Shown: positions 9,428 through 46,404 of the stretch, one piece after another
How positions within the stretch are numbered: position 1 is the first letter of the stretch
How the letters are laid out: each line of letters begins with the position of its first letter
NCBI GenBank assembly: GCA_036785375.1
Contig: JAWMAR010002203.1
Coordinates: forward strand, 62,001-126,000
Direction: 5' to 3'
Length of the DNA: 64,000 bases
Source: Leucoraja ocellata
Taxonomy: Eukaryota
Program-made: the position numbers and the translations under genes
Notes under the pieces: generated by a model
The model's database searches: none
What the model was told of the DNA's origin: nothing
What the model saw: only the letters and a program-made list of their open reading frames with translations

Positions 9428-9555
9428 CTGAAGAAGGGTCTTGACTTGAAACGTCACCCATTCCTTCTCTCCGGAGATGTTGCCTGTCTTGCTCAGTTAC
9501 TCCAGCATTTTGTCTATCTTTATTTGAAACAGCATCTGCAGTTCCTTCCTACACA
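9428..9555 (+). repeat. Penelope-like short repeat
   Basis: ctgaagaagggtcttgacttgaaacgtcacccattcc...gcagttccttcctacac. Confidence 0.65.
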
Positions 9556-9714
9556 TTAAATTTAATAACACTAAAACTTATAAAATGATCATGACTTCAC
9601 CGTTGACAGAAGTTTGTTTTACATGAATTGCTCTTCAAAGTTCCATCACTGTAACATTGAAAGCATTCTGGAATTATTTCATTGGCTGTAGAGCATCTTG
9701 AGGTAAAATACGCT

Positions 9715-10010
9715 ATACAAAAGGTCTGGATAGAATGAATGTGGGGAGTATGTTTCCACTGGTGGGAGAGTGTCATAGCCTCAGAATAAAAGGTGAATCT
9801 GTGGAATTCACTGCCACAGAAGGCTGTGGAGACTGTCAATGGATATTTGTAAGGTGGAGATTGACAGATTCTTGATTTGTAAGGGTGTCAGGTGTTATGG
9901 GGTGAAGGCATGAAAATGGGGTTGAGAGGGGAAAGATAGATCAGGCATCATTGAATGGCGGAGTAGACTTGATGAGCCGAATGGCCTAATTCTGTTACTA
10001 GAACATGTGA
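9715..10010 (+). mobile_element. Decayed CR1 3' fragment
   Basis: ggtgaatctgtggaattcactgccacagaaggctgtggag...gccgaatggcctaattct. Confidence 0.75.
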
Positions 10011-10565
10011 ACAACCAGGAGTTTGTTTCTTTTTTTGCATATGGGTGTCAGGAAGCAAAATTGCTGTCTGTGAAGTGTGTTCTTGTAGTACTTTAGTTTG
10101 CTGACACAGCTCCGTTTACATCAGAAAATCAAATACACGTCGTAGTACTGATTCTGTTGTTGAAAGTAACTGTGAGCAAATAGAATTACTTAATTTGCAA
10201 GGCCGGGAAATGGTTTCGAAAAGGAGCCTGAGTCACTGGAGCCCTAAGTTCCCAAATGTTAGAAATGCATTCAGCATGATGCAGCCCTGCGAATGAAATA
10301 GTCAAATGTTTCAAAGCTTATTTGAATCTTAAATTGACTTTGATAGTTTGACCTTTTTAAGGCTAATCATATGTTTTCATGTTTTATCACTGCTTCAAGG
10401 GCAAAAAAGGTCTAAGATGTGTTCATTAATGATTAGGGTACATTACAGAGGTGTACCATCCTATTTGGCTTAACTGCAATATGTTCCTTCAATTATATTG
10501 AACTTTATGGTGCAGGTGAGCATGTTAAGGAAATGCAGGGAATGGCTGAGGTCTGAGAATAGAGC

Positions 10566-11016
10566 TGACGTCACTTTGACCTTGGTAAGCACAGCAGGAT
10601 TATGCTCTTTCAGTGTGCAATGCCATAAAGGCTGGCACTTCTAGGGATGGGGAAAACTATCGACTTTTTGCAGGAAGCCGTTGTCTCTTGTAATTTTGGA
10701 TTGCTGCTGTTTCTAGGGAAGGAGCTGAATGTCAGAGTTAAACAGTGTCGGGTTTGAATACTGGTGCTGCAGATACAGGCAGCTGAATTCCGCATTTTAG
10801 AGATAATTCTTTACAGTACGGTTAGCTGATTTCCTCCCTCCTCCCTCTCCCAAAAGGATCCTCCAGTCAAAGGGTTGCTGTTTTTTTAAGAAAACGCAAA
10901 CTAGGCAGGAGATGAAAAGAGGGACAGAGGTTGTTTTGTATGCATTTAGGCCACACGCTCTCCCGTTGCAGGACAAGGGTCTACAATTTCCGTTATTAAT
11001 TGAAACAGTATAAATA
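10566..11016 (+). promoter_or_regulatory. Putative internal promoter for the alternative first exon
   Basis: Perfect CRE TGACGTCA at 10566-10573 and TATAAATA at 11009-11016, in an apparently repeat-free stretch upstream of the MKCF exon. Confidence 0.4.
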
Positions 11017-11102
11017 GATAGAAGGGCTTACTCCTTTCTTGTTTTGGGGTGTGTTGTTAATAAATGAAACTCCAGCAGCATATCGGTGGTATACTGCAGA
11101 AG

Positions 11103-11193
11103 ATGAAATGCTTTCACTGTCATTTCTTCTATTCAATTAAATCATCATTCTCTGGCCTACATGCGCTGATGTCCACTTCACCCTATAACCAAG
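11103..11193 (+). CDS. PPP2R2A: Candidate alternative first coding exon of PPP2R2A (MKCFHCHFFYSIKSSFSGLHALMSTSPYNQ), B-beta2-like N-terminus
   Basis: aagATG start, 30 codons plus G, then donor AAG|GTATGG in phase 1, matching exon 3. Begins MKCF like PPP2R2B isoform B-beta2. TATAAATA at 11009. Confidence 0.62.
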
Positions 11194-11314
11194 GTATGGG
11201 ATGTTCATTTTTTTTGGTAAGATGTGGGTTTTATTTTGACAATGTAACATCTATTGTGCAAGCAAACTGCCAATGAACATGTTTTGTTAGTTAGCTGAAT
11301 GAACTGATTATTGG

Positions 11315-11622
11315 AAGTCTAGGACTAGAGGTCAAAGCCTCGGAATTAAAGGACGTTCTTTTAGGAAGGAGATGAGGAGAAATGTCTTTAGTCAGACGGT
11401 GGTGAATCTATGGAATTGTTTGCCACAGAAGGCTGTGGAGGCCATGTCAGTGGATATTTTAAAGGCAGAGATCAATAGATTCTTGATTAGTGCAGGTGTC
11501 AGAGGTTATTGGGAGAAGGCAGGAGAATGGGGTGAGGAGGGAGAGATAGATCAGCCATGATTGAATGGCAGAGTAGACTTGATGGGCCGAATGGCTTAAT
11601 TCTACTCCTATTCCTTATGACC
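11315..11622 (+). mobile_element. CR1 LINE 3' fragment
   Basis: MRRNVFSQTVVNLWNCLPQKAVEA and the typical 3' UTR gatgggccgaatggc. Confidence 0.85.
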
Positions 11623-13199
11623 TCATTAGTGTGGCTGGTTGTCAGTGGACTGTCCTGTAAAAGAGGCAAACTGCCACTTTGTCGTCCAGGGCTTATGAAA
11701 AGTGAAGAGACGCTTTGTTACAAACACATCACTTAATCAATATTTAGGTGAATGGATGACGTGCATTTTGTTTTCATCGTATTTTCCCCTGGGCTGCACA
11801 GAGATACATTGACTTTGGGAATCCAAGCCTTTTATTTGAATTGGAGAGTGGGGGTAGGGGGTGTGGAAGAGAGGAGGAATATATTTCATAGCTTTCATCT
11901 CAGAATATTTCAAGAAGGTTGAAATAAAAAATCCTGCCCTCTCTTGGGATTTAAGTTATTAATATCTTCAGTGACAACTCGTGTTTAACAAATGATGTCA
12001 ATTGCTGTGTAGGTTTGAATATTGATAACTGGGTGCACTAAAATAGTGAGACCTGCCCAGTATTCAAACCCTAGATTCTCCTCAACATCAATTTCGACGG
12101 TATTTTGAACTATTTAGCCGTAAGATGAATTGGTCCTGGTGGGAGAGATTCCTGCCTATGTCACCATGCGCGCATCACATGCGTCGTGATGCATAAATTA
12201 TGTTGCGTAAATTACGCACAAATGACGGCCAAATGGAACAGGCCCTTTACTCCAAACTCTATTTCCGGACTTGAGACCGATTTTAAATTGGGGGTAAAAC
12301 AGTTTTTGCTCAGATTCAAAGAACAGTTAAAAAAAAATGTTAATGTGCGTGGGTGTGTTCATGGGAAAGGGAAAATGAATAAGACATCGTATTTTTATGT
12401 TTGAGCAAAAAACTTTGAGGGGGGTAGTTTTAACCTGCCTCTGGTTTAGCAGTCACACTGAGCAAATGTCGGTGCCTTCTGTTATCTATCTGGATGCTTA
12501 TTAATTGTCGGTTTATTGGAGTTGCCTGTTGAATGTGACTGATGATAGCAGTTCTCCAAAATGCATATCTCACAGGGGAGTAGGCATGAATAAAGCTTGT
12601 AAATGTTTCTTATTGGATCATCAGTCTTTGCATGATAGTGACGTTTTATTTGGAAAGTGGCTGTCGTGTGGCAGCCATTCATTCTGCTCTGCTAGTAGCC
12701 TGATAAGCTTCTCAAACTAAGTATTGCACTGTAATGAGGTTTTGAACTTGGTGTGAACCTAATTGCCGCTTAAGTACTCAATGGTCAGGGATTACGATTG
12801 TAGGTTTGACAATCAGCTGATTGGACATTCCAACTATTCAACAATGACAAACCCTCTAAAAGTATGATTGTGACCTTTTTCCTTGACTGCAGATTGTTAC
12901 TGTGCTGGAAGATTTGTGGAATACATGTCTGATTGCTGGATTCTAATTAACACAAAGATAATCGAAGCTTGGTTGTAACGTTGAGCTGTGAACAGCTTTG
13001 TGAATGCAAATTTGAAATGTGATATGGCAATTGTGAAAGTGCTTCTGTGTAAATGTAGTGACGTGGCCTGGAGTGCCTCAAGTTAAGCGGCTATAAATAA
13101 CCAGCTGTCGCTGTCAGTCTTCGTTGACATTGCAGCAGATGGGACCTTTTCAACGGGAGAAACAAAAAGTTATTGATTGCACAAACTAGGGTGGATTAA

Positions 13200-13570
13200 T
13201 TTAGTTTATTGTCACGTGTACCGAGGTACCGTGAAAAGCAGTTGTGTGCTAACCAGTCAGCGGAAAGACTATACGTCCACAGTGTACAGTTACATGGTAA
13301 AGGGAATAACGTTCAGTGCAAGGTAAAGTCCGATTAAAGATAGTCCAAGGGTCTCCAGTGAGGTAGATAGTAGCTCTGGATCACTCTCTCGTTGTTGATA
13401 GGATGATTCAGTTGCCTGATAACAGCTGGGAAGAAATGCCCCTGAATCTGGAGGTGTGCGTTTCATACTTCTCTATCTCTTCCCTGATGGGCAAGGGGAG
13501 AAGAGGGAGTGACCGGGGTGAGACTAATCCATGATTATGATGGTGGCCTTGCCGAGGCTGCGTGAAGCGT
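13200..13570 (-). mobile_element. LINE (Rex1/L2-like) 3' fragment
   Basis: tttattgtcacgtgtaccgagg tail (reverse complement of ...gacaataaa) and ctccctgatggg LPSG-like motif. Related tails occur near 30565 and 42358. Confidence 0.6.
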
Positions 13571-13933
13571 GATGAGGGTTTTTAAGATAGTACGGTAAAC
13601 TAGTAATGGAAATCTTGATCCACTGGTTGGGAAGAGGTAAATCTTAAAACAAAAAGCCAGACTTTTCAGGAGTGCTTTTAATACTTCTGCACCAAGAGTG
13701 GTAAAAGCTTAGGACTCTGTTCTGCAAACTATTTTTATCTGTGTCCCCCTGTAAATTTATCTAGGTTGTAAAACAGGTCTCTAGTTTGGTTTTTCCTTTG
13801 TGATTTTCAATTGGAGGCCTTTTGCTGTCAATAATCTTTGTACAGGAAAGGGCCTGACAAAACTAATAACATCAGATCACTGAGTCATGCAGGCAGTTTA
13901 GCCTTGTCCTCGCAGCATGGTTTTTTTGGCAGT

Positions 13934-13984
13934 GAATTATAACACAGAGACTAGGCAGAATTATAACACAGAGATCAGGCAGAA
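13934..13984. repeat. 24-bp tandem duplication
   Basis: gaattataacacagagactaggca / gaattataacacagagatcaggca. Confidence 0.8.
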
Positions 13985-14211
13985 GTAATCGGTTATTGCT
14001 TAAAAATGTAAATGAACACTTGCTTGGTAGTTCAGGGCTTGAAGACCTGCCTCCAATTCCAGGCTGCCAGCAGAATAAACTAACATATTAATTCCCTACA
14101 ATTAGAGGAAGCTTTGCATATAATATTCACAGAATTGCCAGAGATTGCTATCTGATATTCCATGCATGTTTTGTTTTCTGTGGCTTTTGATACTTCTGGA
14201 AACTGGAAGAT

Positions 14212-14466
14212 TAGACTTTAGACATACAGGGGGGAAGCAGGCCCTTTGGTCCACCGAATCAGCACCGACAGCTATCATCCCTGTACACTAGCGCTATCCC
14301 ACGCACTAGGAACAATTTACAATTTTACCAAAATCAATTAGTCTACAAACCTGTACGCCTTTGGAGTATGGAAGAAAACCATGCACCCAGAAAACCCACA
14401 CACAGGGAGAACGTACAAAAAACTACATACAGACAGCACCCGTAGTCAGGATTGAACCCAGGTCTC
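14212..14466 (-). mobile_element. V-core SINE
   Basis: Reverse complement of the same family (cagggagaacgtacaa..acagacagcacccgtagtcaggattgaaccc). Confidence 0.8.
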
Positions 14467-16835
14467 GATGTGACTGAATGGAATGCAATGCAAATATTCA
14501 TTTCTGAATCGATTCAAAATTAAGTGTCGTAACCAGTGGAATCTGGGGAACGGTGTTGGTGAGAGTAGCGTGTCATTAATTAAAATCTTATTTTAAATGA
14601 CAAAGGAGCATGGGATGTGTGCAGGTAGGAATATGAGTATGGAAGAAGCCTTGTATAATCGCAACTGTTTCCCTGATGTGTGTTATTGACAGGTTTGTGC
14701 GGTGCACTTTGCTCACACTGTGCTGGTCAATAGTTCCTCTTAGTCTCTTAGCAGTATTCTTTGGTTGAACAAAACGATTCTGAGTCGGAGTGATATGAAA
14801 ATAAATGTTTCTCAATAGAAAGCAAGGTATTGTCCTTTTGCCAGTTTTGGTTATCTTTTTGGATTCTCCTCCCAGCTCTTGCATCTCTTCAAATCCATTG
14901 ACTAGAGCTGTTTCCTGCTGGTTTTCTTTTTGAGTGAACTGTGCATGACTTTGCTTGTGATAGTTGTCCTTTGCAAGTTTGAGTGAATGTTGGCCAACTG
15001 TTTGACTGGTAAGGATAAGGCATTCACATCGGCCAATTTGCTAGTGTTCATGCTGTCCTTCAGAGAGAACAATTGGAAAGCCTTTCATAGTCCCACTGAG
15101 TTGAGGTCTGTCAGAGCATTTCAGTGTGTGAGATATGGAGCTATTGAATTTAATTCTTGCCTTCATATCTTGCTGGATAAGAATTCTGAAACACTTTCTC
15201 AATAAAACTATATTGCTTGATCTCAAGAATTGCTATGGCTTCTGCATATGCAACATAATTTTGCTGTTCACCAGTGTCTATTTTTGCTTGATAGGTATAT
15301 TGTCCATATGTTCCAAAGTTGTTTGTAGATCGGGAACTGTGCTCTAAATTTATTTTTCATAAATTAATGTATGAATGGATACTGCAAACTGTATTGGAGT
15401 GATGATTTGTTGAATGTGTTGGCGAAAAAAGCCGAGCAGCTGAATGAAAATGGCATTGACTGTTCAGCCTGAAGCAGCGGTCTGCAGAGCTTCTAGCCGC
15501 GGTCGTGGCGTCCGGAGCCTGGGATCCCTCATTGGGGATCCCCGGAGAAGAGCTTCGGCCCGCCAGCCCGCGGCCTATGTCATCTTGAAGCGGCGGTCTC
15601 GGGTAGGGAAGCTCCGATTTGCGACTTACCTTCCAGAAGAGAGGGCCAGCACATCTGGCCGCCCGCAGCGGCGACTGCGGAGGTTTATGGCCCCGACCAC
15701 GGGGGAACAATGGAGGAGGACTGACTGTACTTTGTGCCTTCCACCACAGTGATGAATGCTGTGGTGGATATTTGTGTTAAATTTTTATTGTGTATTCTTT
15801 TCGATTGTACCGCTGCAGGCAAGTTAATTTCACTGCACTTTATTGTGTATATGATGAATAAATCTGATTGATTAGATTGTCATTGACTGTGTATGGTTAG
15901 AATTTTTACGTAGTTTGAAATTTGGAAGCTTGCAGGATTAACCTTGTCTTGAGAAATGAAAATCAGGTGATGAGTAAGCCAGTAGATGCTGCCTCACCCG
16001 CTGAGTTTCTCCAGCATTTTTGTCTACCTTCCATTTTCCAGCATCCACAGTTCCCTCTCAAACAGTAAGCCAATAAAAATAACTTTGGTCAGACTCTTGT
16101 TTTAAGATGTAGTTTGTAATTTGAAGATCTAAATTTTTGTGGTAATGTTGTAGTAAAATTTTCATTTGGTGGAATCTACTCGGAGCTGATAATGGTAATG
16201 AGAAAACAAAATGTGTACAACAGTGTGTAAATAAAGGCTTGCTCTGTTTATGAACAGATCTAACAGTAGGTGTGGGGCCCTCGTGCTACTCCACTATTCA
16301 ATCAAATCACAGCTGATGTTTTCCTTTTTTGCCGCTATCATGTGCTAAGCCTCGTATCTCGTTTATTATCCCAATATCTGTCAAACTCGGCTGCTGAGCC
16401 TCCACATTCCTTGTGGCTAGAGAAATGCAAAGATTCAAGACATTTCTTCTCACCTGCCCTGAATGGCCAACACTTTATTTTGAGACTGTGACCCACTGCT
16501 GCTAGATAACCTAGCTAAAGGAAACATCAACACTCTCAAGCCCTTTAAGAAGTTTATGTTTTAATGAGATCACCTCTTATCCAAGATTGAGGCTTTAGGC
16601 CCAGTCTGTTTAATCTCTCTTCGTATAGCAAACCTGCCTTCTCTGGAATTAATCTGGTTAACCTTTGCTGAGCTCCTTCTTACAGAAGGAGATCCTTGGG
16701 TAGGGAAAACAGACCAGTTGAAAATTAGTAGTCTTGCCCGGGGACTTCTATAATTGCAGCAAGATGCAGTTTCTTAGTGTGAACTGATCATGCAGTATAG
16801 GTCAATATACTCTTTGTGTAGCAAGGAACTGAAGA

Positions 16836-16956: not shown

Positions 16957-17515
16957 GGTTAGAGGACAGAAGGTGCTGGTATACACCGAAGATAGACACA
17001 AAATGCTGGAGTTACTCAGTCTTTGCCTTACTAATGGCTTGCAGTACCTGCTTATTAACTGTTTCTAATTCATATACAAGGATACCTAGGTCTCTCTGCA
17101 CACCAATATCTTTCAATCTCTCATACTTAACAATTGCTCCCACTTTTACTCTTTCTACAGAATTGGATGGTCATGCATTTCCCCCCAATTCTCTCACTTT
17201 CTTGCTCCTTCATCTAACATGTCAATGTCCCAATTAAATCTTTCTGCAATACACCGTTCTGCCACCTATGTTTGATTTATTTGTACATTTTGGACCAGTG
17301 GGGCTGGCTTGTGAAGAGCTTTGTTGTACTTTGTGATGTAGTTAATACTTACATTGATACAGCTTTGCATATGTCAACTTTTAATTGCAATCGTCTCTCG
17401 TTCCTGAATCATGTATTGTGAGGAAGCACATTGAGTTTAGCAACCTGGCTGAAGCTTTGACCATTTCAAAGGTGCACGAACATCTTGTTCTTAAAGCCCG
17501 ACTTCAATATAGCGA

Positions 17516-17732
17516 AGGGCCTGTCCCACTTACGCGATTTTTACTTGCCATGTTCCGGGGTGACGCCTGTTTAGTGGTGAGTAGTGTTTAGTGGTGAGTA
17601 GTCGCCCAAAGAATCGTACCTTTTTCTGGTCGCCACTGGATTTTCAACACGTTGAAAATTTTCGGCGACCTGCTGCAACTATGACGGGTTCCGGCAAGTC
17701 GCCGAAAAAATCGTGTAAGTGGGACAGGCCCT
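17516..17732. mobile_element. Small MITE with ~27-bp TIRs, PIF/Harbinger-like
   Basis: AGGGCCTGTCCCACTTACGCGATTTTT ... AAAAATCGTGTAAGTGGGACAGGCCCT, flanked by CGA / TGA (possible 3-bp TSD with one change). A related right end lies near 12230-12246. Confidence 0.78.
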
Positions 17733-18085
17733 TGAGGATGTAGTATGCAAAGCAAGTAGGAATGTGATGTCTCCGCAAAAAGATGGAGTTTGAAGTATGA
17801 TTGTAGTTAAATGATTCATCAGAACATTAGAGATGTCAAATTCTGTTTTATAGAAGCCACAATGGGGTGCCTAATGACCCTCATTTTTGCTGTGAATAGT
17901 GAGAGATAAATTCTACACTCTCCCTTGTTTGTCTTTTGTTTAACAAATCGAGCAAACCAAAGTTATTTGTTTTCTATTTCAGTTCCAGCCTTGGGTATTA
18001 GATGAGTGCCCCGTGTGTGTTTGTGTCTTGGCCTTGGAACTGTAATTTGATGGCTAATTGTAGTATTTTGCTGGGAATTCCTATA

Positions 18086-19457
18086 GGGTGATTTCACTAA
18101 AGGTCACTGGAGCGTGTATCCGCACCCACGTGACCAAAATTCTCCGGTGGAGGACACATCCGGGTCCTGGTACATGTTAGTGGATGGGAAAAATCGCATT
18201 TTCCCACCCGTTAAAAACATAGAAAACGGCGAGGTTGAGAGCTGCAATTTACTGTGCCAGTCGGGGTGACTGTGAGGCACAACTACCTAGATTTACAGGG
18301 AAAAAAAAGATAGCAAGTAAGGTAAATTCAAGAGGGAACTGAAGGTGCCTATCCACCGGAAGTCAGGAGCCGATAATTGCCGAGGATATTTAAAGGTCCA
18401 GAATATCGGGAAATATCGCGTTTTCCCGCTGAATTTCATCAAAAGTAAGGCATTATATACTTTTTTATCTTTATTCATTTGTTAGATGAGAATTTTTAAA
18501 AGTGAAAAATCACTCAGTAAAAGTTCAAAATCGGCCATGGTTCTCAGGTCGGTTTTAACATGCAAAATCAAAACGCCTCTGAAGCTGCATTTACCATTTA
18601 AATAATGATAAACTATCAATGCATTTTTAAATAAATTTCACTCAGATGCAAGCTAAGGAATGTGATAATTATCAGCTGTCAGTTGGACAAAATTAGGACA
18701 TGTTATTATTTGCCAAAATATATTTCTCAATGTTTCTTGTTTAAAGCCTGCACATTCACCCAATTAATACATAAGTTGTTTGGGTGAATGTGCAGGCTTT
18801 AAACAAGAAACATTGAGAAATATATTTTGGCAAATAATAACATGTCCTAATTTTGTCCAACTGACAGCTGATAATTATCACATTCCTTAGCTTGCATCTG
18901 AGTGAAATTTATTTAAAAATGCATTGATAGTTTATCATTATTTAAATGGTAAATGCAGCTTCAGAGGCGTTTTGATTTTGCATGTTAAAACCGACCTGAG
19001 AACCATGGCCGATTTTGAACTTTTACTGAGTGATTTTTCACTTTTAAAAATTCTCATCTAACAAATGAATAAAGATAAAAAAGTATATAATGCCTTACTT
19101 TTGATGAAATTCAGCGGGAAAACGCGATATTTCCCGATATTCTGGACCTTTAAATATCCTCGGCAATTATCGGCTCCTGACTTCCGGTGGATAGGCACCT
19201 TCAGTTCCCTCTTGAATTTACCTTACTTGCTATCTTTTTTTTCCCTGTAAATCTAGGTAGCTGTGCCTCACAGTCACCCCGACTGGCACAGTAAATTGCA
19301 GCTCTCAACCTCGCCGTTTTCTATGTTTTTAACGGGTGGGAAAATGCGATTTTTCCCATCCACTAACATGTACCAGGACCCGGATGTGTCCTCCACCAGA
19401 GAATTTTGGTCACGTGGGTGCGGATACACGCTCCAGTGACCTTTAGTGAAATCACCC
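18086..19457. mobile_element. Foldback/MITE-like non-autonomous DNA element: two ~680-bp inverted arms around a 16-bp spacer, flanked by TA
   Basis: 18083-18763 is the reverse complement of 18780-19460 (coordinate sum 37543 at the ends, the centre and the mirrored 61-aa ORFs). Termini TA|GGGTGATTTCAC...GTGAAATCACCC|TA. Confidence 0.85.
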
Positions 19458-21611
19458 TATTGATATAATTCATATTGGCAAATAGACACTCAATTGGTTT
19501 ATGAGGTGGGGGGGGGGGGGGTCAAGAGTCGTCAAAAGTGCTTTATTGTCATGTTCCGAAACAGAACAATAAAATTCTTACTTCAGCAGCACTAGAGATA
19601 TGTGAACAGAGTACGCTGGGGTGAGGGTTAGGGAGTGGGAGAAACTTGGGTGTGCAATGAGTTACCACATCCAAAACTATTTTTAAATAAAATGATTCAA
19701 GACCAGATCATTAAACATGCAGAATGCAGCTGGTTGAGGTTTTAAACTAATTACACGTGGGCTGTGAATATTTACCTGAGATTCTGATGCTGGCTGATTT
19801 GAGTTTGCCTCATTATACTTTGGGTAATAATGTGAGCATGGTGAAGTGACTCTGGTTTTTGAAACGTGTGATCTATGTTGTGGATTACAGATGCTAGTAA
19901 ATTGTGTTTCTCTGCTGGTGTCAATTGGATTTGGCTAGCCCTATTGGTAAAACTGAGAAAGGAGGAAAGGGAACTTGACTACATGGTGCCCCTTGGAAGA
20001 CCTTCATGTGCAAAGTGTTTCCAGGTTAATTGTGCACTTTTGAAATGTATACTTAGTGTTGTAGTATGGCGATGCGTGTCTACTGTGTATACCTGGTCCC
20101 ACAACAAATTAGGTTTATAACTTAAACTGTTTAGTTGATAGTTGAGGAATAAATATAACCCACAGCGAACTTTACATTTCCTGAAATAGTTCACTGAACT
20201 CTTATTTATTCCAAAATGAGAGAAAGCTGACAGAGCCTTGGGTTATCTAGATTACAGAAGTTCCTCGAATGATTGCATGACCTTCTGGCACAGAGTACTA
20301 CCACTGAGCCAAGCTGGAAACGAGCACTCTGAGAGGTTGCAGTTTGCATTGAGTCGACCGCACTACACAAATGTTGTATCGCAAGTGCCAGTTATGGTTT
20401 TAGTGACACCTGGTCTGCCTCTCTGCTCTCTTTCACCCCCTTGCTTAAAGGTGATCCCCCTTTCAGTAAGTGATGCTGAAAATAAACTGTTTTGGCACCT
20501 ATGTGGACTTTATGATTCCACCAACAACAAAAAAATAATGATAGCAGCCGCAATATGTCATTACAGATATATGTCATTGAAGGCCCACCGCTGATTTTCC
20601 AGCATCCTTGATTCCAGAGTCTGGATTATCTGTTTTGCCGGACCAACGAAGGTCACAGCTTCCGAGAGGAGTGGAATGGTACTGGAACGATCGGCCTTGG
20701 CCAGCCAAGGGCCGAGATACTGGCCCGAAAAGATCACCTCAGTAGTCTACTGTGGGAATGGATCTGCCGGCTCCGGCCTGGCTGGAGCTCCAGAGCCATT
20801 CACCTCAATAATTACCCATGGTATACCCATGGTAACAAGTTGTAGACTATCACCAGTTTCTGGCTCAAGAACATTCTTCTGAATTCGTCCAACTGTTTTT
20901 TTTAAATCTTTTATGTTCCCCAGCTTTAGATGCAACCTGAAGGTGACATCTCACCGTCCAGGCATTTCTTGAGTAACATGATTGAGTGCGGAGCAGAATC
21001 CGGACCGACATGTTTTATTCATGAATGCTAGGTTTATTTAAAGACCTTTAACACATCTAATAGTTGGCAATAAATGTCAGGAGTAAAATTTCAAACCAAG
21101 TTTAGGGCGTGTGTGAATGCATTTGTATGCAAACAAGTCCAGAATTATTGGAGCATGCTGCTTCTAAGTATTTGAGTAGAATTATTGGCTATAGTTATGT
21201 AACTCTGCAGATCAGTGTTTCAATACAATGACATGGCTGTCCCAGTAGTACTGGCACCTGCAGGGCAACTGGCTCAATGGGATGGAAAAAGCAGCACTGT
21301 GATGTACGGAGAATTCCAGGCAGTATCTGGGCACCTGTAACTATCTCATGCCCAATGATTTTTTTTTTGTAGTTTGAGATTCGGATATAGAGCTTAAGGC
21401 CAGTGTTTCAAGAGTGTGTACATGCAGAACTCCTTCATCGTATCCTTGTGAGCTTGACAAGTGGTACATGTAGCCTCGTCTGATAAATTGTTCCTTATCT
21501 GGTTACTTGTCTCAAAGCTCACAAGTTCTGTTGTGTACATCAGCTAATTCTCCTGAAGTTCAACGATGAGAGTGAAATGTCCTAATGTTTTATCATTCTT
21601 TATCTTTACAG

Positions 21612-21709
21612 CTGATGTTATTTCCACGGTAGAATTCAACCACTCTGGAGAACTACTGGCAACTGGGGACAAGGGGGGTAGAGTGGTCATATTCCAGCAG
21701 GAGCAGGAG
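21612..21709 (+). CDS. PPP2R2A: PP2A regulatory subunit B55-alpha, coding exon 3 ([33 protein letters not shown])
   Basis: tttacAG acceptor, GAG|GTGAGT donor, 98 bp. Translation matches the B55 N-terminal WD40 region. Canonical exons 1-2 were not found and lie upstream of the window. Confidence 0.96.
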
Positions 21710-22812
21710 GTGAGTGTTATCTGTGTAGCATAGAGTTGAAATGAAGTAGCGTGGTGATTTAGCTATTTCTGCAGTTCAGTGGTGGCATGTTCAAAGGAAT
21801 ATTCCTGGCAAGTCATTGATCCATACTTGTCACTATTTATATTTTGCATATTGATTCCTCATAGAGGATGCATGGATATCTATGTTTGAGCTGAAATGTT
21901 TTGCAAAAGAAATTACATAGAATTCCCGGTATAATGCCACCACCTAACCCTGCAGGTTTATGCAGGTAATTATGTTCCAAGAACGTCGCTCATGTTAACT
22001 CATCTTGTTCTATTAACATAACCATCCAGAAGATCATTTTAATTCTCTCTGGGATGAAACACAGCAACATTTCTAAGGCATTTTGCAACATTTTGAATTT
22101 GGTTAGGCATGTCTATATCTGAAGCTTACTTGTGCGTTTTCATCACAACTTCCATTCTGGGGCCATGTAATTTGTTACATGGTGGCTACATGTGTACATT
22201 GTTTGGTTGTGAGGTGGTACCCAGATTCGGAAGTAATGGGTGTTCAGTTGATGAGGAAGACCTGCTCCTATTTTTTTTTAATGAAAACCTTTGCCAATTT
22301 AAGTGTATCTTCTTCTGATTATATACCTGAAATGACCATGCATGTTTTGAAGCAAGTGATGCTTCATTTGCTGCAGAAGGAAATGCCTTGGCAAGAGGTG
22401 TATGCAGCCACATCTGATGACATGTTTGATAAGAGAACATATTCTCGGTTGTGAACTTATTGGTTAGGATTGTACTTGAATGCCATCTTGAAGTAAGAAG
22501 ATGGATTTCTGTGGGAACTTTATTTTGAGGTTTTCTCCCCCAACAAACATATTCAAAGTGCGGCCAAAAGAGGTCATATACAAGTTGACCACCGGTTTTC
22601 TGGCAAGTGGTGGCCCGCGCTTCCCCTCTCCTCCTCCTCCTCGGGAAGACCCCCCCCAAAAGGACAGTCCGACGGCCATTCTCGACCTCAAGCCAATCGG
22701 CGAGTTGAATTTTCCACCTGCAGCCAGGGCTCTGGAACTCCAGCCAGGCTGGGGCTGCCGGATCCGTTCCCATAGACAACTTCCTCACTCCCTCCTCCTC
22801 GAGACTTTTCTT

Positions 22813-22909
22813 GTCTAAAGAAGGGTCTTGACCCGAAACGTCCCCATTCCTTCTCTCCAGAGATGCTGCCTGTCCCACTGAGTTACTCCAGCCGTTTGTG
22901 TCTATCTTC
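22813..22909 (+). repeat. Penelope-like short repeat
   Basis: Same family. Further copies near 23481, 34820, 36130, 45362 and 47010. Confidence 0.65.
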
Positions 22910-23063
22910 TATATTCATTGCTTTATCTGGTTAGTAGAAAAAAGCAGAAATACCTTCAATACAGTTAGATTTTAAGAACCAGTTGGCATTGTAGGTTACA
23001 AATCTTATTGGTTTTAGCTGAACATAGTTGTGGTGTTCTAATCTATTCTGTTCTTCCTTGCAG

Positions 23064-23229
23064 AACAAAAGCCAGCCTCATTGCAGAGGTGAATATAATG
23101 TTTACAGTACTTTTCAGAGTCACGAGCCAGAATTTGACTACTTGAAAAGTTTAGAAATTGAAGAAAAGATCAATAAAATTAGATGGTTACCCCAGCAAAA
23201 TGCTGCACAGTTCCTGCTCTCTACAAATG
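23064..23229 (+). CDS. PPP2R2A: PPP2R2A exon 4 ([55 protein letters not shown])
   Basis: ttgcAG / G|GTGAGT, 166 bp. Contains the B55 signature [17 protein letters not shown]. Confidence 0.97.
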
Positions 23230-24541
23230 GTGAGTTCCTTCTTCACTTCATTCGCTTGCTCACGACAGCAACCCTGGTTGTACTTCCTTTTAGAATGGGC
23301 AATAGCTATTCCGACAATTTTTAATGGTAGATTTCAGTAGACTCTTTTATAATACTTTTAAGTTTAATTTCTCAAATACTGTTTACCCGCTCATTAATCT
23401 CCCCAAGCCGCCAGTTTTCTTTCCATGTTTTTTGTTTTCTTATAGTGGGGGGAATGAACAAACTGTTTTGGGTCGGGATCAGTCTGAAGAAGGGTCTTGA
23501 CTCGAAACGTTGTCTATCTATTCCCTCCACGGATGCTGCCTGACCCGCTGAATTCCTCTAGCACATTGCGTTATGCTCAAATGGTTATAGTTTGTATTAT
23601 TCACTGATGAAATGATTCTGAATAATAAATATTGCAGACTACAGGTTGGGGTCTTCCTCACCTTCGCACTCTTACTGGAATTGCAAAAACACCTCTGGCC
23701 AAAATTCCTTTCCATCAGCTACATAGTTTTGAATGAATTTGTTGTGTGAAAAATGGCAGCCAGCTTTGCCTACATAAATCACTGCATTTGAAAATATTGG
23801 TGGGTAAATGACTTGAGACATTGATAGATGGATAAATCTTATATACATTTAAGCTATTGCTCTAGTATATTGTAAAAGTAAATTAATTTTCCCATTTCGT
23901 AGATAGATACATACATAATTCTTTGTGGAGATATTAAAGATTCAAAGAGAACATTGCTATACTGTAGTCCTGTGTTTCTAAATTGTATTGTGAGTGTTCT
24001 CGCATTGATCTGAAGTTATTGTTTTACATCGCTAGTGCATTTATACTTTGCTAATATTTATTGCAGCATTGCTTCCAGTGTTTGCTATGCTGCAGTGAGT
24101 TGACATTCCAGATTGGTATCATTAAATGTTTCCTCAAGGCCCTTGTTTATGCAGATGGCAGATACAATACTGGATGAGATACAGATCTGGATGAGATGCC
24201 TGCATTTCACACTTGCGTTCATTTTCGGACAAAACTCTGATTATTAATAACCCATTTTCTGTTATTTGCACTTTCTCAGTTTATTTATTCATGTGTGTAT
24301 ATATTTGTATTATGGTATATGGACACATTGATCTGTTTTGTAGTCAATGCCTACTATGTTCTGTGTGCTGAAGCAAAGCAAGAATTTCATTGTCTTATAC
24401 AGGGACACATGACAATAAACTCTCTTGAACTTGAACTTTAAAAGGTCCTCCTTTAATCATTTAGAATTGTAATCCAACACTTGGATGCCAGAGGCTCATT
24501 TGCCCCTCTCTATTAATGCAATTTTGTATTTATTTTCTTAG

Positions 24542-24654
24542 ATAAAACAATAAAGTTGTGGAAAATCAGTGAAAGAGATAAACGACCAGAAGGATATAAT
24601 TTGAAGGAGGAGGATGGTCGATATAGGGATCCTGCCACAGTCACTACGCTTAAG
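24542..24654 (+). CDS. PPP2R2A: PPP2R2A exon 5 ([38 protein letters not shown])
   Basis: cttAG / AAG|GTGAGA, 113 bp. [17 protein letters not shown] is alpha-type rather than delta-type. Confidence 0.96.
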
Positions 24655-26182
24655 GTGAGATCTAGAGTGCAAATTGCTTCAAAGAATACACCAGCATATC
24701 TTGGATGTGTTTTTGACTCCGGTCGTAAAATCTGGGTAAATCGTTAAATGAAACATCCAGGACAGTTCTGAGGGGCAGTTTTGGTCTGGTTTCAAGGCAC
24801 CAATTGTGGAAGATACCCCGCGTTGTTAATATTGATGCCCAGTATCCCATTTTGAGCATCCTGTGACTCTCTGAAGGCCTGAAGTTCAAACATGCTTTAG
24901 TTTGCATTTATAAGGCATCAATATTGTAGCAAAAAGTCTCAGACCGCCTGTGGAGTTTTTTCATACAAAACCATGCCAGACCATGTGAGGTACTTCTGTT
25001 ACTCTGCATAGTTCTGGATGCAATGTAAAAAGAGAGCATTCCAGATATGTTTGCAGATTCGAAACTTGCAGTGCAAGGCTCTGCAGATCAAGAAATGTTG
25101 AACAGGCCAGGTCTATTGTGAAAGGAGAAGGCTGAAGCTTGATTTGCTCATTAATTTGTTGGATGGGGGTATTGTTGGCAAGACTGGCATTGTCCCTCCC
25201 TTATTAATCTTGGAAATAATGAGCCGTTGTACAAGTATCTTCATAAATGTAGGCCTGATAAGTGGGGATTCCCAGTACTTCTACCTAGGCTTATCTTCCA
25301 GTGAAGATACAAGTAGGCAATACACTCCCACCTCAGAGTTACGCATCTTGAGGAAACGTTCAGGTTTTAATGTTCCCAAAGGAGGTCCCTCTTCAGCTGC
25401 CAACATGGTTGAGAGCTGGTTAATACTTTACTAATGGGCACACCTACACAGTTCCTGCGTGATGGTTTTTAATCTTGTTTGCAAGCTCTTGCTTCTTCAT
25501 ATTATTCTTTTGCTGATGTGGGTCATACGCTGTTCCCAGCAATCAACTACTTTTGAAAAGAGCTATGGAGATAGGCAACAGAGGTCTACAAATTTATGAA
25601 TGGATCCGATAAAATGTGCAAGGGGTATGATTCCAAGTCAGAAGAGCAAAACAAGGTGTTATCAATGTGCGATATCACTGGAAAACGGAAAGGAAATGTA
25701 TTACACAGACATTGATAATTTCCAATAGGAAGTACTTGAATTTGTTGGACTCTTGTTTTTATGCAGTATATTCTGCTTGATTGTGCAAGAAGACAGAATT
25801 TGTGGTTGGAGGTATTTCAGAGAACATCTTAAGCTTGGGAGGAGAGATGAGAGAATTTGTCCCACAGCTACTGGGCCTTGACAGCTGAAGGCTTTTTTTG
25901 TGCATGTATAGCTGGCATTGGCTTTGAAAAATAAGCACTTGGAAGACTTCCTCTTGTGCCACAGTGTACCTTGCACCCTCATGAAATTAATTTATTTCAA
26001 TAAAATTTACTGAAAAGTTATATAAAAACAGAAAATGCTGGAAAAACACTCTAGAAAGAGAAAATGTTAAAGTTTCATGTCAAAAAACCATCAGAGCTGT
26101 TCTGTAAAATTATGTACCTTTCTCTAGATGGGTTTCTTCATTGTTTAAATTCTTTTAACACCTTGTTTTTTCTCATTCTCAG

Positions 26183-26360
26183 GTGCCGGTATTCAAACCT
26201 ATGGATTTAATGGTTGAAGCAAGCCCTCGAAGAATATTTGCTAATGCACACACATATCATATAAACTCTATTTCAGTCAATAGTGACTATGAAACTTACT
26301 TATCAGCAGATGATCTTAGGATTAACCTGTGGCATTTAGAAATCACAGACAGAAGTTTTA
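26183..26360 (+). CDS. PPP2R2A: PPP2R2A exon 6 ([29 protein letters not shown]...EITDRSF)
   Basis: ctcAG acceptor, 178 bp, ends at a GTATCCTT (U12-type) donor. Confidence 0.96.
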
Positions 26361-27871
26361 GTATCCTTGTCAATGTGGCAGATCATTTTTTTTGGGGGGA
26401 AAAATGTTTTATTTGGCAGCAATGTTCCTCATCTCACTTGAAAGTACAAAGGATTTTTTTTTTCATGCATTGTTATGTCGGTATTGTTCAACACCTTGTA
26501 CTCTGTATCCTAAGGCAGATGGTGAGTATTTTGGCTTGAATCGCAGCCAGACTATCCAGTATGCATGACTGTCCGGGCAGGTTAATGGCTCTGCTGATCT
26601 TTCAAGAACAAATCTTTGGCCAATGCTGAAATTCCTGCATTAAATGTGATCACGCAACTGGTCTCCTGCAACCCAAAATTCAAAATAACTGGCGTAAAAA
26701 CCTTCAGGAGTTTTATTGGATATTGGATATACAATATCTAATAGCACATTTTATCTTTGACCTCCCATTCTTGTCAAAAAAATGAGTTTTAAAATTTCAT
26801 TAGCTGCTGACTTGTACCATTATTGCGCTAAAGAGTTTGGCTCGTGCTCTTGGATTCTTGCCTGGACTCTGTATTTCACAGTACACTACGTCTGAGAAAG
26901 CTCCAAAAAGCTTTAAACTTTTTCTTGGAAAAGAAAAGTAAAATAAATATAAATAAAACAATACTGGAAATGCCCGGCAAATTAGACAGAATCTGCTGTG
27001 AGGAAAATTGTTACATTTTTAGGTTGATAAGCTTCTTGGGCAGAGTAAAACTAACATTGCTCAATTTGGTAAACTGGACAATAGATAATTTTTGTGCTGG
27101 TGTTACAGGCTATTGTAATCCTGAAGTGAACAGATAGTTTTTACTTGGGTAGGGTTCTGAAGACTGAAAAAGGCAATGTGAACTGCTGGCATAAATTGAC
27201 TTGTGACTTGGGATTAGCAAGGATTTGGGATTTACACAATCGGATTTCTTTGAAACCTGGGCAGTTACAGTTTTGATTTTAGACACAAAAAGCTAGAGTA
27301 TCTCAACTTGTCTGAAGAAGGGTCTCGACCCAAAACGTCACCCATTCCTATTCTCCAGAGATGCTGCCTGTCCCGCTGAGTTACTCCAGATTTTTGGGTC
27401 TACCTTTGATTTAAACCAGCATCTGCGGTTCATTCCTACACAGTTTTGATTTTATAGGAACCAAAGTTATTTGTTCTTGGAATTGATTTGACCAAGCTTT
27501 GAAAGAAACGTGTTGCAACAAGCTGGCGGAAACACCTGTTAGGTTTTTATAAAGATAAAAAGATAAGATCTATCTATAACTATGGAAATTGGATCGTGTG
27601 AAGTAATGGGAAAACTCATTAAGAGATGGGTGATCATCTTGGTGCTAATTATTTTCCTATTTCATGTTGATCCAGAGTTGAATATTGCAGAAATCATTGA
27701 TTTACATCTTGCTCTAATAAGGTTTCTTTTCTTAGTTATAATTTTATAGTAATTGGCTACTCTATAGGATCAGTTGCATGCATAAGCTGAAGATGACTTG
27801 TTCGACCCCTTGGCCAGGTTGTCATTTTGTGTGGCGGTAAGCCATGTATTATCCTTGATGGCCTGTCTCAG
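26361..27871 (+). other. PPP2R2A: U12-type (minor spliceosome) GT-AG intron
   Basis: 5' splice site GTATCCTTG. Branch-like TCCTTGAT at 27852-27859, about 12 nt before the AG, with no long polypyrimidine tract. Confidence 0.9.
27310..27441 (+). repeat. Penelope-like short repeat inside the U12 intron
   Basis: gtctgaagaagggtctcgacccaaaacgtcacccattcc. Confidence 0.65.
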
Positions 27872-28036
27872 ATATTGTAGATATCAAGCCTGCTAACATG
27901 GAGGAGCTGACTGAAGTGATTACAGCAGCGGAATTCCACCCCAATCAGTGCAACACATTTGTATACAGCAGTAGCAAGGGAACCATTCGACTGTGTGACA
28001 TGAGAGCAGCTGCCCTATGTGACAAACATGCCAAAT
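27872..28036 (+). CDS. PPP2R2A: PPP2R2A exon 7 ([55 protein letters not shown])
   Basis: ctcAG / T|GTAAGT, 165 bp, translated by hand (absent from the ORF track). Confidence 0.96.
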
Positions 28037-29051
28037 GTAAGTCTGTGACTCAGATAGTTGTGCTTTAGTGATTTGTGTTTTCAATGAATGCTCTTTTCAC
28101 ATGGCTCAAAATTGACTTCTCTGAATGCACAACAAGAACAGATCAATATTGTTCAGAAACTACTGACATTTATCAACCTGATGCAGTCTATATGCAGGAA
28201 CTGAAATACATGTATGTTAGCTTTACAGACCCTATTTATTTCTCAAATGTATTTTTGGTTTTATATCTTGCCGTTTTGCTTTAGGCTTCTCAGTTATGCA
28301 TCTAAAAGACAGGAGAGTCATGAGTTTGATTTTCAGCATGAAGCATGCTGATATAGTACTGCAAAGGCATTTTAAACTATATTTCCTCAGCTACCACCAC
28401 AAACAAGGCATCTGCACTGGCTCGCTCTTCCCCAAATTGATTTGAGCAATTGAATCCTGCTTTGTACTGCCCTACATTATTCAGTCAAGCAGATAGCCAA
28501 AATCTGTTTTTTACAGTTTGCCCGTTGTCTACATTAACACTACAACATCCACTCCACAACTATTCCATTCCCTTCCTTGTGCTACGAGCTTATAATGACT
28601 GAAACTGTACATTTGTCCCACCATCCCTCCTTGTTCTTCAGAGTTCACTTTTCCCTTTGCCTGTCAAGAAATTCAAAGATCCCTGGTGGGAGCACTGTAG
28701 AACTGGAACTTGGAGGGCTGTGGTCAGTCTGTTAAACCAAATTGAAAACCTTGCAACAACTTGTTACTCTTGTTTCTTTGAAGTGGTGACATGGCTACCA
28801 CAATTCAGCAGCACCTGATCCACTGGCTGTCAACTGGTCACCTGTTAATTTACAAGATGTCGACGTGCTGAGGAGAGCAGCCAAAAAGCTGGTCAACTAT
28901 TAGAATCATTTTTGCAGTTATTAAAACTTTTACAGCCCGGTCGGTGCCTGCCACCGAATCGGTCTGAATGTCTGCAAGAAGAACATTGCAGCACCTGGTT
29001 TTCTGATCAAATGCAATTGAAAAAGGGACTTCGATTTTTATTATTCCATGA

Positions 29052-29335
29052 CTTTAGACTTTACAGCACTGAAACGGGCTCCTCGGCCCACCGAGTCCAT
29101 ACAGACCAGTGATCACCCCGTACATTAGTACTATCCTACACACTAGGGACAATTTACACAAACTAATTTGCCTACAAACCTGCACGTCTTTTGAGTGTGG
29201 GAGGAAACCGGAGCACCTGGAGAAAACCCACGTAGTCACAGGGAACATGCAAACTCCATACATACAGCACATGCAGTCAGGATTGAACCCAGGTCTCTGG
29301 CACTGTAGGGTGGCAACTCTCCTGCTGTGCCAGCA
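29052..29335 (-). mobile_element. V-core SINE, nearly full length
   Basis: Same family, with head, V core and tail recognisable. Confidence 0.82.
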
Positions 29336-29537
29336 TGCATTTGATTTTTTTTTTTGCAGTGTACCTTTCAATGCAGATGCTGACTGGTATGACTTGAATA
29401 TATTTCTGCTAAATAGGAGGTGTTGAATATGGTACAATGCTGGCGACAAATATTTAGGTGCTATCAAATGGAAAAAGTATAAGAATGGAGCAAGTCTACT
29501 TTCTGGACCTTCCCAACATTTCTTTTCCCTCCAACAG

Positions 29538-29707
29538 TGTTTGAAGAACCTGAAGATCCCAGCAACAGGTCGTTCTTCTCAGAAATAATTTCTTCAATAT
29601 CAGACGTCAAATTCAGTCACAGTGGTCGTTACATGATGACACGAGATTACCTATCAGTGAAAATCTGGGACTTAAATATGGAAAGTAGACCTGTGGAGAC
29701 ATACCAG
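29538..29707 (+). CDS. PPP2R2A: PPP2R2A exon 8 ([57 protein letters not shown])
   Basis: caacAG / CAG|GTAC, 170 bp. Confidence 0.97.
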
Positions 29708-31284
29708 GTACACAAGCTCCTGCCATTTTTTGTGTTCCCTTGACAGGTTGTCCCCTGTTTATTTGATAATTCTATGTGTATCAATTTTATGGCTTGGATG
29801 CCAAGTGCACTTTTTTTTTAACCAATTCATGATTCTTGAAACAGGTGCAGTACAGAATGAAGCTTCCGTTACCCTCCCTAAAAATGCATTAGACAAACAG
29901 AACCTGCTAAACCAGCACAATGTTTTCCAATGTGTCCCAACCTGTTCAGTGGCACAGCCAGTCAAGGACGCATTAGGGACATTTGTTCTGTAAATTAATT
30001 TACACCAGGAATTGTCTATGCTGGTTATAGTAACTAGAAACGAGAATATAACTACCATTACATGTTTTTGTCTTTGTGGTTACAATATCCTTTTTGCATT
30101 AAAGCTGATTGATTCATGTTAACACTTACCTCAGAAAGAACAGTTGGCAGCTAATTTGCAAAATGCACTTGGCAAATAACACAAGTTCAAATTTCTGCAA
30201 TTTCACTCAATGCCTGCGTGGAATTTTACTTCTGGGTGATAATTTATATTACCATGCTAGGATTAGAAAAGATTTAAAGTTCATATTTTAGTTGTATACT
30301 TTATAGTTCAATTTTTCATAAAACAATGAATAACGTCATTGTTTCGTGCAGCTATTGCAAACATTTACACCCAGCACGATCCTATGGACATTTGCGATAT
30401 GAATGACTAGTTATGTTTTATGCTAGTGTTTTTGCATCCTTCTGGGTGATGCACTGGAGCCTTTGGAACAGATAGGCGAGTTTTCAGTTTATTGTACAAA
30501 GTGCAACACCCCTACCTGCATCTTCGTTATTGATTTGGAGTTTTTTCAATAGATCAAAGATGCTTTTATTGTCACGTGTGTGGTGCAAACATCCAGTGAA
30601 CTTCTTTTCTTACATATAGTCCAGTACAGTATTCCCATACCTAAGCACATTCACGATTAGCAAGTGTACAGAAATAAGTCTACTGATCCCGTATACAAGA
30701 GACGCCATGTTTTAGCGCCATTATCAAAGTCCAGTCCGCGCTCCAGTTGTTGTGAGCGATGCCCGATCCAGGCAAGCCCCAGGCTGCTACGGGTCTCCAG
30801 CCATCGCCTTCCTTGATGGAGTGGATCGACCAGCAAACCCATTCATTTGTAGCTGTCCTGCAATGGAGCTAACATTCAGTCTTCGGACTTGGGTTAAAAT
30901 GCCACCTTCCACAAAAAATGCACTGGACAAACAGCACCTGCTAAACCAGCATGGTGTTTACCCATGTGTCCCAACCTGTCCAATTAGCTCTTGTAATGGA
31001 GCTAGCATTCAGTCTTCTGACTTTGGTGAAAATACTAACAATTAAAGCTAACTTAGTTCTAGATATTAAATCTGCTATTCTGTGAAGGGAAAATAATATT
31101 TGTTGAAAATCCTGTTCTCGTGACTTTATTCTGCTCTACTTCTCCCCCCCTCCCTCCCTTCTGTCTGTCAGTACTGTAAAGGATTTATTCCAGTTCGCCA
31201 GGTATTTGTATATTTACCACCATGTGTTTTGTATAGAACTCGGACTGGATTTCACTCAGATCGACTTATTACTTGTTCTTACAG

Positions 31285-31376
31285 GTGCATGAATACCTCC
31301 GAAGCAAACTGTGCTCACTGTATGAAAACGACTGTATTTTTGACAAGTTCGAATGTTGTTGGAATGGATGCGATAG
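31285..31376 (+). CDS. PPP2R2A: PPP2R2A exon 9 ([30 protein letters not shown])
   Basis: ttacAG / AG|GTAAAA, 92 bp. Confidence 0.96.
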
Positions 31377-32477
31377 GTAAAAGCTGATTCTTCTTCAATG
31401 AGACCTTCAATTGTTCTGTTCTTGCTAATGGTATCTAGGTTCTGTATGACGTATCATGGGACCGGTGATTTCTGTGTGAATTCTGCTTCAGATAACGATG
31501 ATCCAAAGTTTGACAATTAAGGTCAGATTACACGATTTGTAAAGTTGTTTGAAATATGATGACATTTAGCCAGTGCCACCTTTGACTCGAGATGAGATTT
31601 CTGGTGATGAAATGAAAGAATAAAGTTGGTGCCCCTTTGCAGACTTGGTAAAGCCATACCCAAGCTCAACGGGTCTGCAGTTTACCAGCTAGTCTGACTC
31701 CTGCATGAAGCATGTGCGCAAGACACTTCCCGCTGGGTAGGAGGGCCGTTTTAATTGATCTGTGGTTTGTACTAGTTACCAAGGCTCTGCTCCCATGATA
31801 CTCTGCTGTGATGGTCATGCTCACGTTCCCTGGTGAGTGGGTGGAGAAATGTTGTTTTGTTTGGTGGCTGAAAACTGGATATGGTGGAAGTTAACAATTA
31901 TGGGGAATTGGGTTCTCGAGGGAGAAAGTGGGGGAAGGTGTAGTGGAGGTGATGGATACTCTGAGTATTGGAAGATGGGTTCTCTTAACCTTGGTATCTA
32001 GGTCAATCTATGATATAAATTTTGGATGAGAACTCCCAAGTATATGCCTTTTGAATCATAATGCCTTGTCACTTGCCTAATGTGCAGGTTTTGTTTTTGT
32101 TTGATTTCAAGATCGTGTATAGAGTAATACAGCGTGGAAACAGGCCCTTCGGCCCAACTTGCCCACACTGACCAACATGTCCCAGCTACACTAGTCCCAC
32201 CTGCCTGCATTTGGCAAATATTGATCTCAAATTGTCATTTGTTAAGGAAGAAATGCAAAGGGCATGATTATGACTCTTCCAAAGGTCCTGTTGTGGGAAT
32301 GGTCTCTTAGAGGAGGAAATGGGAAATTGTTAAAGAAATGGGAAGATAAAAGTTCGCATTTACTTACTGTAAAAATGTCTCCAGTGAATTGTCAATGAGA
32401 TAAGGTCGCTGAATGGCCAGCGTGTGTAGTACTGTTTAGTGCATTTGAGCTCTGGTGTAGGGAGCTGCAACAAGGTC

Positions 32478-32900
32478 ATATAGACAATAGGTGTAGGAGT
32501 AGGCCATTCGGCCCTTCTAGCCAGCACCACCATTCAATGTGATCATGGCTGATCATCCCCAATCAGTACCCCGTTCCTGCCTTCTCCCCATATCCCTTGA
32601 CTCCGCTATCTTTAAGAGCCCTATCTAGCTTGAAAGCATCCAGAGAACCTGCCTCCACCACCCTCTGAGGCAGAGAATTCCACAGATTCACAAATCTCTG
32701 AGAAAAAGTGTTTCCTCTTCTCCGTTCTAAATGGCTTAACCCTTATTCTTAAACTGTGGCCCCTGGTTCTGGACTCCCCCAACATCGGGAACATGTTTCC
32801 AGCCTCTAGCATGTCCAAACCATTAACAATCTTATATGTTTCAATAAGATCTCCTCTCATCCTTCTAAACTCCAGAGTGTACAAGCCCAGCCGCTCCATT
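32478..32900 (-). mobile_element. CR1 LINE 3' fragment
   Basis: MERLGLYTLEFRRMRGDLIETYKI...GESRTRGHSLRIR in ORF 32621-33070. Confidence 0.88.
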
Positions 32901-33305: not shown

Positions 33306-33345
33306 GTGTATACTTACTAATGGTTGAATGTTTTACCACTTTCAG

Positions 33346-46365: not shown

Positions 46366-46404
46366 TTCCTAATCCTGTCTATTTACCAAGTGCTGTCTGG
46401 ATTA

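Follow-up and report, generated by a model that had tools for sequence, protein, structure and literature searches.

A 1.4-kb near-perfect palindrome in a PP2A B55-alpha-type intron: very probably a young, gene-less foldback transposon copy

Results

A long palindrome upstream of a B55-alpha-type exon

The window analysed here, a stretch of 64,000 nucleotides from Leucoraja ocellata, contains exons of a gene of the PP2A B55-alpha (PPP2R2A) type. In the PDB its reading frames hit chains of PP2A B55-alpha, and a tblastn search with five paralog proteins placed eight plus-strand segments at 21611-33622 for the alpha proteins. B55-alpha was the best match by aligned residues (410/475, against 392/475 for delta and 383/461 for beta). 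A further search for homologs also confirmed this gene family. The exon preceding 21611 lies outside the window, and the intron is therefore longer than 21 kb. Within this intron lies a long palindrome; the exon at 21611-21709 begins 2,151 bp after it, in agreement with the 2.1 kb given in the initial annotation. That annotation had also named the intron as PPP2R2A intron 2. The PPP2R2A-type exon was recovered by tblastn, whereas the intron and exon numbers follow those of the human gene, by which we take the host intron to be intron 2 and the exon at 21611 to be exon 3, the upstream exon being beyond the window.

An inverted-repeat search of the 64-kb window located two ungapped arms of 681 nt each (18083-18763 and 18780-19460) with 16 nt between them, as the initial annotation had described them, including the letters of the spacer. 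The runner-up inverted repeat of the window is 118 nt long at 89%, so that the palindrome lies far beyond chance. Three symmetric target bases are counted in each 681-nt arm; with these excluded, the element proper spans 18086-19457 (1372 bp) and its arms measure 678 bp (Table 1). The arms differ at exactly the two mismatches that had been noticed before, with no net indel (18145 C against 19398 A and 18282 A against 19261 C). Both are transitions, and the 18145/19398 mismatch lies in a CpG context.

Table 1 Features of the palindrome and its surroundings (window coordinates)
Feature	Position	Strand	Remark
Left target sequence TATA	18082-18085	+	minimal duplication is TA at 18084-18085
Left arm (long terminal inverted repeat), 678 bp	18086-18763	+	
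20-bp imperfect palindromic motif, copy 1	18186-18205	+	candidate sub-terminal transposase site
20-bp imperfect palindromic motif, copy 2	18408-18427	+	90% like copy 1, 222 bp further inward
TCACCC at the arm's inner end	18756-18761	+	reverse complement of outer GGGTGA; 6 bp only
Spacer, 16 bp, non-coding	18764-18779	.	internal 3-bp stem possible
Right arm (long terminal inverted repeat), 678 bp	18780-19457	-	2 differences from left arm
Right target sequence TATT	19458-19461	+	other family copies read TAT-A here
First host exon in window, PP2A B55-alpha / PPP2R2A type	21611-21709	+	spliced on both sides in RNA reads

The outer ~350 bp of the left arm are GC- and CpG-rich while its inner ~330 bp are AT-rich, and the CpG observed/expected ratio is 0.90 in the outer 400 bp of the arm versus 0.40 window-wide. 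The two 20-bp motifs of the arm fold weakly above shuffled sequences (z of -2.4 and -2.0). A TCACCC hexamer fell within the last 12 nt of the arm in 12 of 20000 shuffles, by a test chosen after the match had been seen, and the correspondence with GGGTGA fails further in. The initial annotation had reported no transposase reading frame, and none came to light: the longest stop-to-stop frame in the element is 62 aa, and a Pfam scan of 10 of the 30 element frames (the longest of one arm plus the centre) returned nothing at the curated cut-off. Rfam gave 0 matches at gathering score across the window, no tandem array overlaps the palindrome, and the arm does not recur elsewhere in the window, where a search at 2 mismatches gave 7 matches with 5.2 expected by chance. 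A sigma-70 promoter and terminator scan stayed at chance level and was set aside, the model being bacterial and not applicable to a vertebrate host.

Several other repeats were observed in the window. A second small element with terminal inverted repeats, ~220 bp in length, occupies 17515-17733, 350 bp upstream of the palindrome; it has 28-bp inverted ends at 96%, internal palindromes and GGG...CCC ends, with no clear duplication. The same intron carries a young truncated LINE fragment at 4203-5450 (plus strand), whose 415-aa open frame matches RVT_1 and ALKBH8_N in Pfam above cut-off. A 250-bp direct repeat at 98% (6457-6706 and 43121-43370) reflects recent retroposon activity, and the 190-aa frame beside its first copy (6549-7121, minus strand) looks by eye like a LINE end, with no Pfam match at cut-off. 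High-copy repeat fragments lie in the right flank at 20564-20863 and 19551-19583, marked by loose ends and by peaks of depth in each of the four runs described below. A degenerate array with a ~43-bp unit is found at 45996-46375, and an abundant SINE-like family of ~100-130 bp recurs in both orientations at many places from 7111 to 63502 (families D1-D7); it is presumably a cartilaginous-fish SINE.

An interspersed repeat family in related organisms

The stretch 18764-21763, which comprises the spacer, right arm and right flank, was compared at 85% likeness with four of the 24 public runs listed: contigs of organisms A (X1), B (X3) and C (X6), and poly-A RNA reads of organism B (X24). Contigs of X1 over the flank showed 0 other letters than the window over 1135 and 1061 bp, with 5 gap letters in the first, so that the assembly around the palindrome is sound. 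The same identity marks organism A as the species of the window or its source. In the flank, B diverges from the window by ~1.5% and C by ~1.7%.

Depth over the seven bins covering the spacer and right arm far exceeded that of the unique flank in every contig run. In X1 it was 17,000-109,000 versus 15-18 (ratio 1,000-6,500), in X3 49,000-273,000 versus 17-41 (2,600-14,700) and in X6 148,000-380,000 versus 37-51 (2,900-7,500). Summed contig depth is not copy number; the excess shows a very large interspersed repeat family and nothing more on copy number. Individual contigs matching the inner arm with one difference at most reached ~60 times the flank depth in X1 and 100-145 times in X3, which points to a young subfamily. 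The 1774 X1 records over 18764-21763 include 224 that are at least 99% alike and 460 below 90%. In A and B, though not in C, depth over the outer 400 bp of the arm is 2-6 times that over its inner 300 bp, and some listed joints leave out internal stretches (19111-19439, 18907-19404, 18960-19083 and 19271-19313), from which it follows that deletion derivatives and subfamilies exist. One multi-copy X1 contig, with a depth of 219 (~13 times the flank), begins its alignment at 18766 in the spacer and continues into the arm, with 10 differing letters and 6 gap letters; it is a weak hint that the family shares a short centre.

Over the segment 19375-19408, present in both arms, this copy departs from the bulk of the family, whose contigs and reads continue there in other sequence; the segment is diagnostic of a subfamily. 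At 19385 run X1 offers just one diverged contig, of depth 13, so that a portion of the arm has no counterpart in the same-species run, in which contigs drop variants and a filter removes records. Contigs of X3 and X6 were also seen to leave the element at 19460 and re-enter the arm at 19387 or 19428 after 4-5 letters, possibly as nested or adjacent copies. The exact terminal patterns had 0 matches in metagenome contigs and viral contigs, and the arm, compared with plasmids in distant mode, had none. A literature search found no description of the repeat family; repeat libraries were beyond its scope, so the family may be catalogued already.

Terminus and target site

The GGGTG...CACCC termini are directly flanked by TA on both sides (18084-85 and 19458-59). 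Loose ends listed behind 19460 comprise 21 contigs in X1, 19 contigs in X3 and 39 RNA reads in X24 (bin depth ~45), with an agreement of ~0.4; this is among the 24 of 682 loose-end entries listed, in which neighbouring places may be pooled. An agreement of only ~0.4 between the flanks indicates many insertion sites sharing one fixed terminus. All three loose-end consensuses and two listed joints that leave 19460 start with A, so that other copies read CACCC-TAT-A and their target is TATA-like. The boundary can be modelled as GGG ends with an exact TA, GGG ends with TATA/TATT, TAGGG ends with TA/TT, or AGGG ends with an exact AT. A TA duplication inside a symmetric TATA preference requires zero mutations in the copy and a 4-bp TATA duplication requires one; the target is TATA-like under both, and either duplication may have produced it. 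The TA target proposed in the initial annotation thus describes this copy, which has the exact dinucleotide on both sides, and has to be widened to TA or 4-bp TATA by the TAT-A that follows CACCC in other copies. Among the entries listed there was no empty site, and neither single arm has a target duplication of its own.

Identity of the arms

Divergence between the arms amounts to 2/678 sites, or 0.3% (95% range 0.04-1.1%). Separate evolution of the arms since the split from B or C would have produced an expected 10-12 differences (P of 0.002 and 0.0007), and the insertion is therefore young or its arms have been homogenised. Both arms also share two private letters, C at 18841 (partner 18702) and A at 19169 (partner 18374). 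The first is absent from all contig depth compared (17, 34 and 30 contigs in X1, X3 and X6) and so is the second (3, 2 and 0 contigs), and in X24 13/13 and 11/11 reads differ from them. The pattern points to one arm having been copied from the other, at the locus or in the source copy, or else to dropped rare variants combined with polishing cross-talk.

The private letters also bear on the possibility that the palindrome is an artefact of assembly or polishing, in which a fold-back read mirrored one arm or cross-mapping made divergent arms alike. Their presence in both arms, unmatched by contigs or RNA reads, would be expected of such an error, and no listed record bridges the centre of the locus. 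However, contigs drop rare variants, so that private letters are expected to be missing from them. Both arms end exactly at the family terminus, in different unique flanks and with TA on each side, while a fold-back chimera would have mirrored the flank as well. The two transitions between the arms, one of them at a CpG, likewise argue against mirroring. We consider an artefact highly unlikely.

Predicted hairpin and RNA evidence

The palindrome is predicted to fold as one RNA hairpin of -1280 kcal/mol. Provided that the intron carries the palindrome, the model makes this structure in the pre-mRNA thermodynamically certain, which bears out the ~680-bp hairpin anticipated earlier. Long duplexes are ADAR and Dicer substrates, and editing, small interfering RNA and splicing effects had been suggested in the initial annotation, along with a check for A-to-I edits. 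The test applied to these suggestions is a weak one: it covers ~5% of the poly-A run X24 from organism B, which may lack the insertion. In this run the exon at 21611-21709 is covered at a depth of 22-37 in each direction; at 21611 it is linked to one upstream exon by 89 reads, and 93 reads continue downstream of 21709, each with an agreement of 0.99. All nine unique-intron bins in 19664-20563 are at zero depth, and none of the 15 joints listed, out of 49, connects the arm with an exon. Arm reads of X24 are equal on both strands and have foreign flanks, and so derive from other copies. In these reads, A>G plus T>C changes occupy 34 places versus 33 for C>T plus G>A, giving no editing excess; the same contrast in the DNA runs is 22/20, 34/28 and 29/33. 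A run search for RNA sources matched none and gave no evidence on expression.

A hairpin kept by the host for tuning PPP2R2A splicing, editing or small-RNA output would be in keeping with the 680-bp perfect duplex predicted in the pre-mRNA. However, youth and high copy number suffice to account for the palindrome without selection, and the normal splicing to 21611, the empty intron bins, the absence of an arm-exon joint among those listed and the balanced substitution places speak against it as far as so weak a test can. Exaptation is accordingly regarded as extremely improbable. No effect of the palindrome on the host gene is indicated and there is no sign of host function; the suggested RNA effects found no support in one poly-A run, taken from a related species in which the insertion may be missing.

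Discussion

A young foldback element

We interpret the palindrome, with high confidence, as genuine and as a young copy from a large family of non-autonomous foldback DNA transposons. A large interspersed family with a fixed terminus argues for a non-autonomous transposon of the foldback/MITE type, and the traits of that type are found here: terminal inverted repeats, no transposase coding capacity and many interspersed copies with a common terminus. The initial annotation had arrived at a young foldback/MITE-type element, a view strengthened by the high-copy family, by the fixed terminus with varied flanks and by the near-identical arms. Among the points that stand against the transposon reading, the contig data compared showed no autonomous partner, empty site or full-length second copy, and no listed contig piece bridges the arm-flank junction or hairpin centre of the locus. 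At 1372 bp the element exceeds the strict MITE size of below ~800 bp (PMC5199201), and foldback element is the better label.

On the transposon reading, the copy would represent the recent insertion of a gene-less cut-and-paste element made of two 678-bp terminal inverted repeats around a 16-bp remnant. A DDE transposase encoded elsewhere would bind both identical ends at the GGGTG termini, and perhaps at the 20-bp motifs, excise the element and insert it at TA within TATA or with duplication of TATA. The long symmetry would have arisen in the repair of a break, with one end of a parent element serving as the template that replaced the other end. Such arm-to-arm copying probably recurs, which would keep the arms 99.7% alike while many family members are 85-95% alike. 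The copy itself would be a passenger in a long intron, removed by splicing.

Relationship to known superfamilies

Superfamily assignment is a matter of judgement. Our tentative preference, held at somewhat less than even chances, is a TA-targeting Tc1/mariner-like element; a Sola2-like element with a 4-bp target is doubtful, and an origin in some other or unclassifiable group is doubtful to the same degree. The TA duplication characteristic of Tc1/mariner is exact in the copy, and the TATA context of the family is compatible with a TA plus preferred flanking bases as well as with a longer duplication. Tc1/mariner elements are not generally known for GGG termini. Sola2, according to its founding paper, reportedly has 5'-GRG termini and long TIRs, and the GGG start and 678-bp arms of the palindrome fit this description. 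Sola2 makes 4-bp AT-rich duplications (PMC3627910), which compares with TATA/TATT, one mismatch, in the copy and with TAT-A in other copies. The parts of PMC10045372, PMC5751038 and PMC4455052 at hand do not describe Sola ends or TIRs; the last of these classes non-autonomous families by duplication length plus an 11-base terminal match.

Other groups were tried and rejected. ISL2EU (PHIS) has the target A-AT-T and TIRs of 6-259 bp that begin with GG (PMC4482050). With the start of the element moved one base outward, the flanks can be taken as an AT duplication; the left side would then be T-AT, the family would show A after AT, the start would be AG and the arms are 678 bp, so the ISL2EU rule is not obeyed. 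Kolobok and KolobokP were rejected since a TTAA duplication and direct terminal repeats are absent in the palindrome. Crypton was dropped on a description without TIRs in the available portion of PMC3212892, and Spy on its AAA-TTT target without duplication (PMC4122938, excerpt).

Two groups of derivatives offer closer structural parallels. Some mariner MITEs of Drosophila have had the 3' part replaced by the 5' part, measure 460-1000 bp and retain traceable transposase remnants (PMC4161770). The palindrome resembles them in being non-autonomous and TA-flanked with long inverted repeats, but differs in its 1372-bp length, its almost wholly palindromic structure, its GGG ends and the absence of any remnant found. 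Galileo, of the P superfamily, makes 7-bp duplications and has tandem repeats in some TIRs (PMC3573991 and PMC4168063). Its TIR pair within a copy is 98-100% alike and extended by templated repair (PMC3573991), and 124 of 191 copies in D. willistoni consist of two TIRs only (PMC4168063). Galileo and the palindrome share two long TIRs around a short non-coding middle, near-identical TIRs within a copy, diverging subfamilies and a palindromic target motif; the palindrome, in contrast, has an AT target of 2 or 4 bp and is free of tandem arrays. By analogy, the earlier suggestion of two left ends joined head to head would fit these known mariner and Galileo derivatives.

A composite origin and wider implications

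KolobokP also bears on a different origin, in which a ~676-bp monomer GGGTGA...TCACCC is present twice, back to back, and both units moved together, as in a bacterial composite transposon or an inverted form of a KolobokP-like paired-end element. KolobokP terminal repeats are ~660 bp long, direct, bounded by their own 11-18-bp inverted ends, able to occur solo and inserted at TTAA (PMC9587614). The arm length lies near this class, the RR...YY termini are alike, and the hexamer stands at the outer as well as the inner end of each arm, a placement found in few of the shuffles. However, the inner match stops at 6 bp where KolobokP has 11-18 bp, the KolobokP repeats are direct and target TTAA whereas the arms here are inverted, and single arms lack their own target duplication. 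The X1 contig running from spacer into arm suggests that the short centre belongs to the family, and the hexamer test was chosen after the match had been seen. We judge a composite dimer to be very unlikely.

A broader form of these ideas seems unlikely, though less so. It would have a vertebrate genome carry hundreds to thousands of ~1.4-kb near-perfect palindromes with a 16-bp loop, their arms synchronised by arm-to-arm copying; each arm may then be a GGGTGA...TCACCC unit, and the whole an inverted composite with a TATA target and no place in any catalogued superfamily. A near-perfect palindrome with a short loop is a fragile site in yeast assays. In yeast, conversion and breakage of long inverted repeats depend steeply on spacer length and arm identity (PMC10164571). 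If many copies were full palindromes with short loops, they would form a data set for arm-to-arm conversion and breakage, and the many-palindrome reading, if true, would allow palindrome stability, arm conversion and dsRNA load to be tested on many natural copies within vertebrate introns.

On the preferred reading of a foldback transposon copy, the palindrome is an ordinary kind of genomic parasite, one of an abundant gene-less family of mirror-image ends. Its value is mostly for annotation: it marks a recently active DNA transposon family in a vertebrate lineage and implies a transposase source elsewhere.
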